64,000 nucleotides of DNA from Sulfurihydrogenibium sp. (GTDB taxonomy: Bacteria; Aquificota; Aquificia; Aquificales; Hydrogenothermaceae): assembly GCA_037442825.1 (NCBI GenBank), contig JBBIPN010000001.1:12884-76883 (forward strand). The letters run 5' to 3'. The position numbers were made by a program. Below, piece by piece: positions 6,001-12,000 of this stretch; the first letter of the stretch is position 1, and every line of letters starts with the position of its first letter.

Positions 6001-9000
6001 TTTTCTGCTATTTCTGGAGCTATAATTTTTACTTTATCTGAATCACTTACAGATTTCCCGCCAGTGATTTCTTTTAAAACTTCCTCAAATGGTTTTTTCG
6101 GTGGTGGGTTGTCTACTAGTTGAACTGCTAAAGATTCATAAATTAAAGAGCTTCCAAATGTTAAACTACCTACTGTTAAAGCAGCCATTTTTAAAAGTTT
6201 CCTTCTGTTCATAAAAAACCTCCTAATTATTTTTCATAAAATATTCGTTCATATCCATATTTTTATAGTTATCTGATGCGAAATAATCTAAAATTTTAAA
6301 GAAATCTTTCTCTTCCCAAGCACCAAATATAGATTTTATTTTTTTACCATCAGTTTCCAAAAAGTAAAACATAGGTGTTCCTATAAATCCATACTTTTTC
6401 CTAAACTCTATACCTTCTTTACTACATTTCCTTAATTTAACTGGAATAAAGTCTTTATTTATCAAATCTTCCACTCTTTTACTTTCAAATACATTAAACT
6501 CCATAATATCACAGTAATGACAGGAAGGAGAATAAATGTAAACAAGAACCAACTTATTTTCTTTCTTTGCCAAATCAAAAGCTTTCTCATAAGAAATCCA
6601 GTTTATATCAGCTTTTGCAATCCATATAAACAAAAGTAGAGGTAAAAATATTTTTCCCATCTTTTTATTCCTGTGTTAGCAGATATGCTGTTAATTGGCA
6701 AACTTCTTCGTATGTTAACTGTCCTGTTGTTAGCTGAACTGTCATAATATTATAGTAAGGCACTTTTTCTAAATCTTTTGGTAATAAAACTCTTCCATCA
6801 GCTATCTTTTGATATAACCAATCAATGGTTTTTGGGTTTCCTCTATAATCTGGAGCTTTAAATAAACCATTTCTATATCCAGATAAGGATGGCCCTATAT
6901 TACCACAACCTTTAGCATCTTTAACACAGTGACATGCTACACAGTTACCTTTCTTTACTGTGTGAAAAACTTTAATACCTTTTTCTGCAAGTTTTTTTAG
7001 TGATTCTTTATCTGTTAGGTTACACTCTGGAGGAACTGCATATGTTCGTGACTTATCAGGTATATCTTTTAACATTGGTGTTTTTCCATCTGGTGATTCA
7101 ATTCCTGCTTCATTTAAACTTAAAGCAAAAGTTAAACCTACAGTTGAAACTACTGCCAAAAATACCTTTCTAAACTTCATAATAACCTCCCACTATTTTT
7201 ATCATCTTTATCAGTAAGCAAATTTTATGCCAATTTTTAGGAGGCTATTTATAGTACTTCTCAAATAATAAACTATCCAAAATGGAACAGTGTTGTCCAA
7301 AATGGAACAGCTTAACCAAACATCTCTCTCCATAAACCTTTTGCCCACTCTTTATATCTTTTTACAGATGATTCTTTTCTTACATTATCTTCTCTATGAA
7401 TAGGTGTAACTGTCTTAGTTACTCTGTCCAACTTAAATGCTGTTTCTGACATAATAGCTTCTTTATCACTTACCATTGAATAACATATAACCATTAAAAG
7501 CTCTTCCTGTCTTGTCTTTTTACCTGTTATTCTTTCATTTATAATACTTGCAACTACTTTACCTTGCATATTAGCACCAAAACCGGATTTTGGTAAAAAT
7601 GTTCTTGCAGAATCACCGATAACAAATACATTTTTAACTTCTGTTTCAAATGTAAACGTATCTACTTCTATCCATTTCTGTCTATTTTTTAATAAACCTA
7701 TTTTATAAAGTAAATTTGAAGCTTTCATAGGTGGAATTATATTAGCTATATCAAATTTAAAATCTCCATTTGTCGTTTTTACTAATTTTTTAGTTGGATC
7801 TATCTCTTTAATAGATGTTCCTGTTATATAATCTGCATAACCTTTATACAACTCATAGTAAGCTTTCATAAAACCTTCAGAGTTTACTATAGGTCTTTCA
7901 TTTTCATCAATAAAATATAAATGTGCTTTCAGATTTCTTGATTTTAGATAGTTTAGTAACAATGCAGCCCTTTCATAAGGAGCTGGAGGACATCTGTAAG
8001 GATAAGAAGGAACAGTTACTACAATATCTCCACCACTAAATTCATTAATTATTTTTTTTAAAAATAGATGTTCACTACCTGGTTTAAATGCAGGCGGATA
8101 ATTTATAAAAATTTCAGCCTTTGTTTCATCAACATCATAATCTATACCTGGTGATAAAACTAAAAAGTCATAAGATACTTTGTATTTATTAGTATAAACA
8201 ACCTTTTTATCAAAATCTATATTGTCCACTTCATCTTTCAATACTTGAATGTTATGTTTTACAGTTAGGTTATTATAAGGAAAACAAAGATTAGAAAATT
8301 CCATTATATTTACTAAATATAGATTACTCATAGGACAAGACACAAAAAAGTCATTTTTTTCTATCAAAATAATATCTATATCTTTATTATATTTCCTTAA
8401 AGCTACTGCTGTAGTTACACCACCATAACCACCACCAACTATAACAACCTTAGCTTTTTTTGGAGAAAGTTTACTTTCTGTAGTTTCTGATTTTACTTCA
8501 TTAAACGAAAGTAAAGTTGAAGCAGAAAGTAATGCAGATGCTGTTAAAAAATCCCTCCTACTAACATTTAATTTGTTCTTTGACATATTTACTTACCTCC
8601 ATAGCAACAGATTTTTCTACCATTTCTGTAGCTTTCTCAAAATCTCCATACAACTCTATTAAATCTGATTTATATATATCTAAAAACTCTTCAAATTGGC
8701 TAGGTCCTACAACAGCTGTTGCATAAATATTTCCATTTTCTTCTACAAGTTCAACATAGGCTAAAGGTAGTTCTGCTGGACCTTCCATTACTTGACCACC
8801 TTTTTTTACATCAAAAACAGACATATGTGCGCAACATTGTATAACACCGCTTTTCCCTGTTGTAGCAGATTTTTCCGTAGGTGGATAGTAATTGAAAAGC
8901 GAAAAATCTTTATTTGGATAATTCCACTGATGAGGACATATTGCACTATAAGCAACGATACTTTTATCTTTTCCTATACCTCCATTAAACTGATAATCTT

Positions 9001-12000
9001 TACCACTATCTAATTTTATAGTCATTGGTTCAACTTTATCACCTAAATTTATAATATAACAAGGTGTAGATTTAAACGGGTAATGGAAAAGTAATACAGT
9101 GTATGGTAATAGATCAGAAGTTTTTAAAGGTTCACCATTTTCTTTTACCAACAATGCTTTTTTATAAGTTTTATAAAGTTCTTTTTCTGCAGCAATTAAT
9201 TTAGTAAAAAGAGTAGAATCTATCATCATTCCAGCAGCTATAGCTGAACATGTCTTAAACAATTTCCTCCTATTCATCTTAGAACCTCCTATATATATAA
9301 AAAAAGGGGGCTAAAAAGCCCCCTCTCATTAAACTATGTATTATAGAATTATTTATATTATCCTCTTCCCCATGTATCTGCTACTATATTATCATACCAA
9401 ACTTGAGCATAAATCGCCTCTTTTTCTCTGAACTTTTCATCTGCACCTGCTGGACTAACACCACCTGCACCTTTAACAGCTTCTATTCCTTTTTCTGAAA
9501 CATTATAAACAGCTGCTACAGAAATGCCATAGGTTGGAGATACTAAACTATAACAAGTGTTTACGACTGTTGTATTTTCTGGTTCTTTTCCGTTTATTTG
9601 AGATACAATAGCTGCTGCGGCCACTTTACCATGGCTATTAGCTGAGAATCCTGATTTAGGCATTATAGTATTAGAAGAGTCACCAATTACAAATACATCT
9701 TTAGCAACTTTTGACTCAAATGTTTTTGGATTTATATCTGCCCAACCTTTTTCATTAGCAAGTTTTGAAGATGAAATTATATCTGCTGCTTTTTGATGTG
9801 GTATAAAGTTTATAACATCACCTTTAATTTTTTCACCAGAAGATGTAACTACAACTTTTTCTTTAGGATCTATTTTTATAACTTTACCACCAACATCCGA
9901 TGAAACCCATTCAACCATATCTCCATATAGAGCACTCCAGCCTTCCATAAAAAGCTTTTGTTTAGGAAAGTTATTTTTAGCATCTAAAAGTATTATTTTT
10001 GACTTTGGTTTATTATTTTTAAGATACCAAGCCACTAAAGAAGCTCTTTCGTATGGCCCAGGTGGACATCTGTATGGCATAGGTGGAATAACCATTATAA
10101 ATGTACCACCATCTGGCATAGCTTCTAACTGTTTTCTAAGTAACAATGTTTGTGGTCCAGCTTTCCATGCATGTGGTATTTCTTCAGCCATTTGAGGTGT
10201 AGCACCTTCTACTGCTTCATATTTGAAGCTTATACCAGGTGATAGTACAAGTTTATCATACTTAACTTTTTTACCATCAGACAGTATTACATGTTTAGCA
10301 GTTGTGTCGATTTCTTGAACATGACCTTTTATAAAGTTGACTCCGTACTTACCTTTTAGAATGGAATAATCTACTTCTAAATCTTCAATTTTCTTAAATC
10401 CACCGATAACTGTGTTACTAAATGGACATGTATAGTACTTGTCAGAACCTTCAATGATAGTAACAGCAATGTCTTTATCGAATATTTTTATATACTTAGC
10501 AACTGTTGAACCACCAAATCCACCACCTACTACTACAACATGAGCTTTCCCTTTTATTTCATATTCAGAAACTTTTTGAGACATAGAAAAAGCTTTATCT
10601 ACTCCTGCTACTGTTGCTACACCTACTAAACCCGTTAATTTCAATAAATCTCTTCTTGTAATCATCTTATCTCCTCCTTATTTTAATGTTGATAGATACT
10701 CTGCTACTTTTTTGATTTCTTCATCTGTATAACCTTTTGCAAGACGGTTCATTACGGTACCTTTAAGTTTGCCTTCCTTATACTGAAGCAATGTTTTTTC
10801 AATAACTGCTGCTGGTTTTCCTGCAATAGAATACCCTTTCTTATTTGTAGTTTTACCTTCTGGGCCATGACAACCAAAACAAGTAGCAGCAATAACTTTT
10901 ACAGATTCTACAGCGTTAGCTGTAAATGTAAAACACAAGGCCAAGACTCCTGCGGTTAAAAACCTCTTCATTTTTAAACCTCCAAAAATGTTTTTTTCCA
11001 TGGAAAATATAAATCATCTTTAAGTTATTGTCAAATACATATTTAAATTAGTATATTTACATAATTTAAATTAGTATATTTATATATTTAAATTAGTATA
11101 TTAATATTAACCTTTTTTTATTTTTATTAGAATATACATGTAAAAATTATTAATTATATTAATATGATTATTAATATATAATATTGTTCTTATAATAAAC
11201 CAAAGTTCTTCATCTTGGTTCTTAACTGCTTCCTTGATATACCTAATTTTTGAGCTGCCCTTGTTTGATTAAAATTTTCTTCTTCAAGAACTTTTAATAT
11301 TACTCTTTTTTCTATTTCATAAAGATTTAAATTATCTTTATCTAATATAGTATCAACTTTATTTTTAAAACTATTTTTTACTCTATCAGGTAAATGATCT
11401 ACGTTAATTATCTCTCCCTGACATAAAACTACTGCCCTTTCTATAACATTTTCAAGCTGTCTAACATTTCCTGGCCAATCGTAATTAACAAGAACATCTA
11501 AAGCTTCCTTATCAATATCATAAATATTTTTCCCATTTATTTTGCTAAATTTACTAATAAATTTTTCAACAAGTAAAGATATATCTTCCTTTCTTTCTCT
11601 TAACGGTGGTATTTTTAAGTGTATTACGTTTATTCGATAAAATAGATCTTCTCTAAATTCTTTATTTTCAACCATTTCTTCAAGATTTCTATTTGTTGCA
11701 GATATAAACCTGCATTTTACTTTCACTAATTCTTTTCCACCAATTCTAAAAAATTCTTTCTCTTGTAAAACTCTAAGTAATTTAGCTTGCATAAAAAGTG
11801 GCATATCTCCTATTTCATCTAAAAACAATGTTCCTTCTTCTGCAATTTCTATCTTTCCTATCTCCTTATTTAATGCTCCAGTGTATGCTCCTTTTTCATG
11901 TCCAAAAAGTTCATTCTCAAATAGGTCAGAAGGTATAGCAGAGCAGTTGATTGCTATAAAAGGCTTATCTTTTCTTTTTGAACGTTTATGGATAGCTTTA

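Follow-up and report, generated by a model that had tools for sequence, protein, structure and literature searches.

Flavoproteins of the FCSD (flavocytochrome c sulfide dehydrogenase) type that lack a cytochrome subunit have been reported beside genes for AioB-like Rieske proteins in Sulfurimonas, Sulfurovum, Arcobacter, and Aquifex aeolicus (Molari et al. 2023; PMC10066037, Supplementary Note 2). The Rieske protein was hypothesised to be the electron carrier for the cytochrome-less FccB of Sulfurimonas and Aquifex, while sulfide oxidation by the non-canonical FccB, and the destination of its electrons, were left as open questions (PMC10066037). A related arrangement, dhsU1-Rieske-dhsU2-sox, is known from an uncultured Sulfurihydrogenibium relative; the assays there covered DhsU1 by itself, expression of DhsU2 in E. 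coli failed, and the passages on this locus give no role for the Rieske protein (PMC3504083).

The locus described here lies in a 64-kb window, the whole stretch of Sulfurihydrogenibium DNA that was analysed (Table 1). The first-pass annotation had the gene order right (cytochrome c, fccB1, Rieske, fccB2, and then sox, the first four on the minus strand), and also the 26-nt overlap of the Rieske stop with the fccB2 start, with GGAGG ahead of both starts. This order is identical to that of the uncultured relative, upstream cytochrome gene included (PMC3504083). The clusters of Molari et al. represent the same system, with fccB lacking fccA and an AioB-like Rieske gene adjacent in all cluster members (PMC10066037); the link is drawn from gene order, an FccB2 orthologue named as A. 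aeolicus, and tree relatives named as Sulfurimonas. The earlier statement that no functional reading was in print is thus incorrect, since both the pairing and the electron-carrier hypothesis appear in Supplementary Note 2 (PMC10066037). The relevant passages of that note contain no Aquificota counts, paralogue classes, or structural model, leave the function open, and do not treat the arrangement beside classical FccAB and sox. The locus is a real FCSD variant, proposed in print in 2023, for which candidate interface residues predicted from a structural model can now be named. No biochemical test of the Rieske-FccB pairing was found in open-licence main texts; the key precedent is in a supplement, and more may exist.

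Table 1 Features of the Rieske-fccB locus and its neighbours (positions within the window)
Feature	Position	Strand	Description
soxX, thioredoxin (SoxW-like), soxY, soxZ, soxA, soxB	2765..7180	minus	neighbours
Perfect sigma-54 -24/-12 consensus	7218..7232	minus	between fccB2 and soxX
fccB2	7312..8586	minus	Tat-signal FCSD-type flavoprotein, 424 aa
Rieske [2Fe-2S] protein, Tat signal	8561..9277	minus	238 aa
Terminator-like hairpin and T run	9302..9327	minus	in the fccB1-Rieske intergenic gap, 25 nt ahead of the Rieske start
fccB1, classical FccB	9358..10665	minus	435 aa
Monohaem cytochrome c, FccA-type partner of FccB1	10678..10971	minus	97 aa, counted from the second ATG (GGAGG site there); start in the ORF list, 11001

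The cytochrome c and FccB1 encoded upstream make up a classical enzyme of their own, and FccB2 is the only cytochrome-less paralogue in this genome. FccB1 groups with a Paracoccus FccB whose gene lies next to one for a cytochrome (SH-aLRT 100; this and the other trees are quick trees without bootstrap), and by gene order it is probably the orthologue of DhsU1 (PMC3504083). The GC content of fccAB (0.34-0.36, compared with 0.28-0.34 for neighbouring genes) gives no sign of recent transfer. On the other side of the locus, soxX, soxA, and soxB were named from profile matches (TIGR04485, PF21342, and a 5'-nucleotidase fold, respectively), and the two genes that we take to be soxY and soxZ from their position and motifs; the sox genes are probably outside the Rieske-FccB module.

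FccB2 matches the FCSD_central model PF21706 well above its cut-off (82.8 versus 27 bits, E 2.5e-23), and its best PDB matches are three FccB structures (1FCD, 3VRD, and 5N1T; TM 0.81-0.84, 28% identity). The FCSD cysteines reported as conserved in the first-pass annotation, C84, C199, and C368, show no variation across the 94 aligned relatives and align to Cys42, Cys161, and Cys337 of FCSD flavoproteins, suggesting by homology that C84 is the FAD attachment site and C199/C368 the redox pair. As these catalytic cysteines are unchanged, sulfide, rather than the different substrate suggested in the first reading, would be the default. FccB2 resembles the flavoprotein of FccAB in fold, Tat signal, the three cysteines, the exit residues, and the predicted docking face. 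It differs in having no cognate c-type cytochrome gene at this locus, where the only FccA-like gene precedes fccB1, and in being partnered by a Tat-exported [2Fe-2S] protein; cytochrome matches next to fccB2 or fccB3 are likewise absent from the loci of family f2.

The Rieske assignment also held (PF00355, E 2e-4), with a twin-arginine motif at residues 3-4. The cluster ligands C114/H116 and C148/H151, in CxH and CxxH boxes, are invariant in 90 of 90 aligned relatives, and the best structural matches are AioB and SoxF of S. acidocaldarius (Foldseek probability 1.0, 20-32% identity). Matches to NCBIfam models fall below cut-off, with archaeal SoxL2 (TIGR03171) at 75.6 bits versus 582.1 and AioB (TIGR02694) second at 51.5 versus 95.65. 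Like AioB and archaeal SoxL/SoxF, the protein combines a Rieske fold, Cys2His2 ligands, and a Tat signal, and would likewise pass electrons one at a time from a catalytic subunit on to cytochrome c; unlike them, it has a longer inter-box loop and, at the C-terminus, an extension of about 45 aa that ends in Cys and that AioB lacks. The extra C149 and the C-terminal C238, whose covariation was counted on an alignment, probably form a disulfide. The protein belongs to a subfamily of its own: in a quick tree the family branches apart from AioB, archaeal SoxL-like proteins, and PetA (SH-aLRT 92), and the fccB-linked members lack support as a single clade (SH-aLRT 51).

Complex prediction for FccB2 with the Rieske protein gave ipSAE values of 0.87, 0.81, and 0.87, compared with 0.01 for the best of three controls; the runs had at least 58% of contacts in common, with a partner pLDDT of at least 93. 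Of the solved complexes, 116 of 157 reached the ipSAE mark, as did 2 of 215 mismatched pairs; these counts apply only roughly when own alignments and ligands are used. The top PDB hits of the two proteins include no Rieske-FccB complex, so the prediction is unlikely to recall a solved structure. The closest predicted contacts include W414-H151 and F336-H151, between FccB2 and a ligand of the Rieske cluster. FccB2 residues F336, I367, and W414, at the predicted interface, align with Tyr306, Thr336, and Trp391 of 1FCD, which lie on the published path from flavin to haem (PMC12010331, where the T. roseopersicina residues are given as Tyr305, Thr335, and Trp390, and the A. vinosum numbering of two path residues looks garbled in the passage concerned). 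All 48 FccB2 sequences compared share the interface residues R410, E413, G417, R420, and D400, whereas six of six FccB1 carry Y, V, N, and A at positions 410, 413, 417, and 420, on the surface of the C-terminal helix.

To place the pairing in a wider context, 178 Aquificota genomes were compared. An FCSD flavoprotein over cut-off is present in 83 and the Rieske protein in 86, and all 83 are among the 86; the sampled genomes are kin, so these counts represent few independent events. The three Rieske genomes without an FCSD over cut-off consist of one broken locus and two contig ends. The usual Aquificota unit is fccB3-Rieske-fccB2, without a cytochrome and apart from sox, in which one or the other flavoprotein may be missing. 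In 25 of the 86 genomes fccB2 is decayed or absent; 24 of these have fccB3 upstream, the other being a contig end. Here fccB3 is missing, and the classical FccAB pair occupies its position; all seven genomes with cytochrome c and fccB1 upstream keep fccB2. The first reading, which joined the Rieske protein to FccB2 specifically, is too narrow, because the Rieske protein probably serves the clade of FccB paralogues without a cytochrome, and fccB3 is its more constant neighbour (upstream in 75/86).

Similar loci occur beyond the Aquificota. In Campylobacterota-type loci, fccB is directly upstream of the Rieske gene in three of the four with flank (L083 has none upstream), and a monohaem cytochrome gene is directly downstream in 5/5. 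The FccB of these loci, including relatives named as Sulfurimonas, falls within the FccB3 side of the tree. Most flanked metagenome loci (64/80) encode Rieske proteins of a subgroup whose second ligand box is altered, and an fccB match above 50 bits was found in 0 of the 26 such loci that have 1 kb or more of sequence at each end; thus, the Rieske family as a whole is not tied to FccB. These context counts leave out 67 canonical-box relatives outside the Aquificota and the Campylobacterota-type loci.

The sigma-54 -24/-12 consensus has two exact matches in the window. The one between fccB2 and soxX may mark sox as a separate unit. Over the loci compared, a sigma-54 site is directly before the Rieske gene in 18 of 82, with fccB2 next in 17 of these 18 (raw count). 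A sigma-70 scan was at chance (19 versus 23.9). The hairpin ahead of the Rieske gene is not significant alone, since one was found versus 1.5 expected in shuffles; a similar hairpin with a T run precedes the Rieske gene in 7/7 other folded loci of the same group. This terminator-like element counts against the main reading given below, as transcription of the Rieske gene in this genome is hard to account for with it in place.

Co-occurrence, gene order, and the predicted complex (0.87 versus 0.01) uphold the part of the earlier interpretation in which the Rieske protein is the electron exit of FccB2, and its claim to novelty falls to the published precedent (PMC10066037, Supplementary Note 2). 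FccB2 and the Rieske protein probably constitute a periplasmic flavo-Rieske sulfide dehydrogenase. Judging from the conserved residues, FccB2 would oxidise sulfide or polysulfide at C199/C368 and transfer two electrons to covalent FAD, as in FccB. The Rieske protein is predicted to dock on the face taken by the cytochrome FccA in FccAB, and electrons would exit singly via W414/F336 to the His151 edge of its [2Fe-2S] cluster, from which a soluble c-type cytochrome feeding a terminal oxidase may be reduced. The two proteins carry separate Tat signals, so their assembly would follow export and the partners may be exchangeable. Where a genome has several cytochrome-less paralogues (FccB2, FccB3a, and FccB3b), a single Rieske protein probably serves them.

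It is rather unlikely, though the likeliest of the rival accounts, that the same complex performs other chemistry, acting on polysulfide, protein-bound persulfide, or another sulfur compound, or that the paralogues divide substrates or concentration ranges. Three well-supported paralogue clades (FccB2, FccB3a, and FccB3b) are kept side by side, with two fccB3 types in tandem before the Rieske gene in some genomes, this genome retains FccB2 beside classical FccAB, and FccB3b differs in the residue after the first redox cysteine. However, the three cysteines and their motifs are intact in 48/48 FccB2, and in the assays described the related DhsU1 accepted only sulfide and none of sulfur, sulfite, and thiosulfate (PMC3504083). 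Monomeric SoxF of Paracoccus and Chlorobaculum is also an FccB-type flavoprotein without a cytochrome subunit, encoded near sox. SoxF activates SoxYZ in Paracoccus, and a monomeric SoxF is reported to stimulate thiosulfate oxidation. FccB2 might by analogy be a stand-alone flavoprotein for the Sox cycle, with the Rieske protein an independent, merely co-regulated carrier, as the pair directly precedes soxX here. A Thermales FccB from the sister group of FccB2/3 (SH-aLRT 88 for the FccB2+FccB3+Thermales side of the quick tree) lies on a plasmid between a DUF302 gene and soxCD, and no Rieske of this family was found on that plasmid, which also weighs against the main reading; most sequences of the group nevertheless carry E413/W414/G417. 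We consider this account improbable. FccB2/3 travel with the Rieske gene and not with sox: 25 of 34 SoxA-positive genomes of family f1 lack both a Rieske match and an FCSD over cut-off, and soxA is 250 kb to 1.1 Mb from the Rieske gene in three single-chromosome f2 genomes (G001, G010, and G034). The SoxA cut-off is too strict for f2, in which SoxA absences were left uncounted. The sigma-54 site before soxX and the complex prediction also argue against it. Monomeric SoxF is not known to have a Rieske partner.

Direct transfer from FccB2 to the quinone pool, as in SQR, with the Rieske protein doing something else, is an alternative named in print (PMC10066037). The two enzymes share a flavoprotein superfamily, and SQR structures match FccB2 at TM 0.68-0.73, but FccB structures match better and the type III SQR model scores 104 bits against a cut-off of 525. 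The FCSD C-terminal flavin-binding domain PF09242 is probably present, with a match below its cut-off (23.9 versus 26 bits, E 5.5e-5) and its strands and final helix visible in the structure model, and the flavin-to-partner tryptophan is invariant and predicted to contact a cluster ligand. This route is very improbable. Least credible of all is a role for the Rieske protein as an extra subunit of the bc1 complex or of arsenite oxidase, which is already largely refuted. AioB is its nearest solved fold and its relatives are often named arsenite oxidase small subunit in databases; yet neither aioA nor cytochrome b is adjacent at this locus, the family branches separately, and elsewhere the genome encodes an AioB-like protein, immediately ahead of a long ORF resembling a molybdoenzyme (contig C31), as well as a canonical PetA-type Rieske (C70) and cytochrome b/c1 (C100).

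If the flavo-Rieske dehydrogenase operates as modelled, the entry point of sulfide electrons and the energy yield would change, as would many genome annotations, among them those of Rieske genes wrongly labelled as subunits of arsenite oxidase. Aquificales are dominant in sulfidic hot springs and Campylobacterota in vents and plumes, and fccB genes from both are routinely counted as flavocytochrome c, though most lack the cytochrome subunit. We tentatively raise the possibility that sulfide oxidation has a third architecture next to SQR and FccAB, in which a flavo-Rieske dehydrogenase of the periplasm would be the sole FCSD-type route in most Aquificales that oxidise sulfur and would recur in Campylobacterota. 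One Rieske hub, with a new C149-C238 disulfide at the docking face, might serve several flavoprotein paralogues with different sulfur substrates, and a large derived subgroup, with the second histidine altered or missing, might have left the flavoprotein and taken another role. The present locus offers the classical and the Rieske-linked enzyme side by side, and the model names a few residues for mutation.

A scan of genome contigs with the single Rieske protein returned one locus, and a pattern scan of viral contigs 0 matches. Among weak Rieske matches on plasmids (52 and 21), the annotated ones listed are AioB, and one that was inspected precedes an aioA-like ORF. A Rieske alignment search for fusions with FccB found 0 among 8000 candidates of 455-2000 aa, which is weak evidence. 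One 409-aa protein (P0133) has an FccB C-terminal stretch before the Rieske domain (E 8.7e-8); it looks like two genes joined by frame errors, and is a hint of fccB/Rieske adjacency rather than of fusion.

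The FccB2-Rieske pair is real and conserved, and is a variant of the FCSD family with a Rieske protein probably in place of the cytochrome. The 26-nt overlap of the Rieske and fccB2 genes in the window, the GGAGG site before both, and the Tat motif in each, all claimed in the first-pass annotation, were found again. FccB2 (424 aa) is 33.5% identical to the classical FccB1 (435 aa), and the two are the sole FCSD matches in the genome (82.8 and 169.6 bits, respectively, in a profile search with FCSD_central). The best sequence matches of FccB2 are three solved FccB chains, and its predicted structure (pLDDT 89.8) has TM scores of 0.81 to 0.84 to three FccB chains versus 0.68 to 0.73 to SQRs. 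The three FCSD cysteines, which had been described as kept, are present as C84, C199, and C368 and are conserved in 94 of 94 aligned relatives. Close homologues carry the names Sulfurihydrogenibium and Hydrogenothermaceae, and the host therefore probably belongs to this group.

Features of the flavoprotein-Rieske locus and related loci (window positions unless a contig or locus is named)
Feature	Position	Strand	Remarks
Monoheme cytochrome c	10971-10678	-	First gene in reading order
fccB1	10665-9358	-	After monoheme cytochrome c
Rieske gene	9277-8561	-	After fccB1; GGAGG site; twin-arginine motif
fccB2	8586-7312	-	After Rieske gene; GGAGG site; twin-arginine motif
Perfect sigma-54 consensus	7218-7232	-	Between fccB2 and soxX
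soxX, thioredoxin, soxY, soxZ, soxA, soxB (reading order)		-	Downstream of fccB2
DUF302 lipoprotein-like gene and ExtI-like porin	919-2774	-	After soxB
Presumed NtrC-type regulator, histidine kinase, and periplasmic binding-protein-like gene	11190-14864	-	Upstream of cluster; motif-based names
Second exact sigma-54 consensus	62547-62561	-	
AioB-like Rieske, then 871-codon AioA-like ORF	G000:C31:13917-14456	-	Other contig of same genome
fccB3 split by transposase gene; Rieske and fccB2 intact	L034:10051-12348		Genome G137
Multicopper-oxidase-domain gene between fccB3 and Rieske	L040:7831-8844		Genome G045

The Rieske protein is encoded in 86 of 178 Aquificota genomes, and FCSD_central exceeds its cut-off in 83, all of which lie within the 86; the other three have a broken locus (G029) or contig ends (G068 and G069). 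Its neighborhood was read in all 86 carriers. Upstream, 75 have a third paralogue, fccB3, counting broken or cut copies and two genomes in which a multicopper gene intervenes; seven have cytochrome c plus fccB1, and four show nothing, three of them at contig ends. Downstream, 52 have fccB2 either whole or truncated by a contig end, and 5 have it in decayed form; it is absent in 20 (scored only with a flank of at least 1.5 kb), of unknown status in 8, and part of a broken locus in the remaining 1. Of the 25 genomes with a decayed or absent fccB2, 24 have fccB3 upstream; where fccAB lies upstream, fccB2 is kept in seven of seven. Since the Aquificota genomes are kin, these counts represent few independent events. 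Several genomes have extra solitary fccB3 copies elsewhere, without an adjoining cytochrome gene. In Aquifex aeolicus, the genes of this locus go by the names dhsU, soxF, and fccB'. In a quick tree of 56 chosen FccB rows, read as unrooted, each paralogue occupies one side of a branch (support 100 for FccB1, 100 for FccB2, and 96 for FccB3). FccB1 clusters with a Paracoccus FccB whose gene has a cytochrome neighbor, and FccB2 and FccB3 cluster with Thermales-like and Sulfurimonas-named sequences (support 88). We infer that fccB3-Rieske-fccB2 is the older unit and that classical fccAB displaced fccB3 in the window's lineage. In G046, the gap between fccB3 and the Rieske gene is similar in size to that of G045. 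Genes for alginate-export-type porins lie upstream of the cytochrome in two other Aquificota genomes (G131 and G108).

Binding of FccB2 to the Rieske protein is supported by a predicted complex of FccB2 38-424 with Rieske 31-238, modeled together with FAD and a 2Fe-2S cluster, which scored 0.87, 0.81, and 0.87 (best of three controls, 0.01); of 157 solved complexes, 116 reach the mark, as do 2 of 215 mismatched pairs, rates that are only approximate for this prediction. The runs share at least 58% of contacts, and partner pLDDT is at least 93. The tightest modeled contacts are of FccB2 W414 and F336 with the cluster ligand H151, and of G417 with Rieske 117-119 and 150-151. FccB2 F336, I367, and W414 align to Tyr306, Thr336, and Trp391 of 1FCD, and a passage of PMC12010331 places the equivalent FccAB residues between FAD and heme. 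FccB2 residues D400, R410, E413, G417, and R420 are invariant (48 of 48); FccB3 has E413 in 63 of 65 and, like FccB2, carries a small residue at position 417 and a basic residue at position 420. All six FccB1 sequences differ at 410, 413, 417, and 420.

The first ligand box of the Rieske protein is missing the usual disulfide cysteine. Among 304 near-full-length sequences, C149 and the last residue, C238, co-occur (both in 271, neither in 31, unalignable at the box in 2). Because of this co-occurrence, and because C149 and residue 236 both contact FccB2 R410 in the complex model, a C149-C238 disulfide is likely. The 31 sequences with neither cysteine form approximately one clade and therefore reflect about one event. 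The second ligand box is canonical in 220 of the 304, has its histidine shifted by one in 41, and is missing it in 43.

Gene order, co-occurrence, conserved flavoprotein chemistry, and the Rieske ligands are the observed basis of a mechanism that we consider, as a whole, reasonably probable. Sulfide would be oxidized at C199/C368 of FccB2, reducing the FAD; the two electrons would then pass singly to the Rieske cluster, predicted to dock at the electron-exit face, and the Rieske protein would hand them to a c-type cytochrome. The identical complex acting on another sulfur substrate seems unlikely. A stand-alone SoxF role for FccB2 is somewhat less likely still. A reference title in PMC5336275 describes a monomeric SoxF that stimulates thiosulfate oxidation. 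In the window, sox genes follow fccB2, with the perfect sigma-54 consensus in between. Of 49 other genomes in the window's family, 34 have SoxA and only 9 the Rieske protein, and soxA is at least 250 kb from the Rieske gene in G001, G010, and G034. Quinone reduction by FccB2, set beside its closer structural match to FccB chains than to SQRs, is improbable.

That the Rieske protein is a spare Aio or bc1 subunit is very improbable. Its earlier label, AioB-like, holds in that AioB, with Sulfolobus SoxF, is among the best structural matches (model pLDDT 93.3), but the protein scores under the AioB and SoxL2 cut-offs and branches apart from the genome's own AioB-like gene. Matches at E up to 1e-10 comprise 151 clusters (50% identity), and in a quick tree of 60 chosen rows the relatives form one branch separate from AioB-like and PetA-type proteins (SH-aLRT 92). 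The separate AioB-like gene precedes a molybdoenzyme-like ORF on contig C31, and therefore the genome probably encodes an arsenite oxidase there; a PetA-type Rieske is on contig C70.

The FccB2-Rieske mechanism had been offered as new. However, passages of PMC10066037 describe fccB clusters without fccA from Sulfurimonas, Sulfurovum, Arcobacter mytili, and Aquifex aeolicus, with an AioB-like Rieske gene adjoining fccB in all members, and hypothesize that the Rieske protein is an electron carrier for FccB, with transfer to quinone and some unknown function kept as alternatives; the central idea is therefore already in print. Passages of PMC3504083 state the gene order and report that DhsU1 was assayed alone and DhsU2 did not express. 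Passages of PMC12545173 contribute nothing further. In the main texts of open-licence papers, we found no biochemical test or characterization of the pair. This analysis contributes phylum-wide counts, three paralogue classes with one common Rieske protein, and a docking model that has controls and names residues for testing, as well as a disulfide that is probably new and a Rieske subgroup that is an orphan.

For a related mat organism, a passage of PMC4912159 reports expression of sulfide-oxidation genes, with RT-PCR targets including dhsU1 and dhsU2. In the window, a terminator-like hairpin separates fccB1 from the Rieske gene, and no sigma-54 site lies directly upstream of the latter; such a site is immediately upstream in 18 of 82 loci, 17 with fccB2 next. 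The presumed regulator, kinase, and binding-protein-like genes possibly form a sulfur-sensing two-component system. Comparable regulator genes lie beside fccB3 copies in other genomes.

A metagenome pattern scan returned at least 120 Rieske loci, 80 of these with flanks. Among the matches listed, 64 of the 80 belong to a subgroup with an altered second box, and for the 26 of these that have 1 kb of flank at both ends, no fccB match above 50 bits lies nearby, which counts against a general Rieske-FccB tie. Many of these loci are embedded in housekeeping genes. The proteins form a single branch (support 97; 10 rows of the 60-row quick tree) and may hold a modified cluster or lack one. This subgroup (within L052-L131, e.g., L063, L070, and L086) is large and high-GC and keeps the extra cysteines. 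A Thermales FccB, encoded between a DUF302 gene upstream and soxCD, has no Rieske protein of the family on the same plasmid. Five matches listed (L064, L083, L088, L095, and L111) are of a Campylobacterota type, labeled from a cluster member named Campylobacterales; fccB is directly upstream in three of the four with an upstream flank, and a small monoheme cytochrome gene is directly 3' of the Rieske gene in all five (weak cytochrome c' match in three). Its 134-141 aa product is a candidate electron acceptor of this Rieske type. The five Rieske proteins have neither C149 nor the terminal cysteine.
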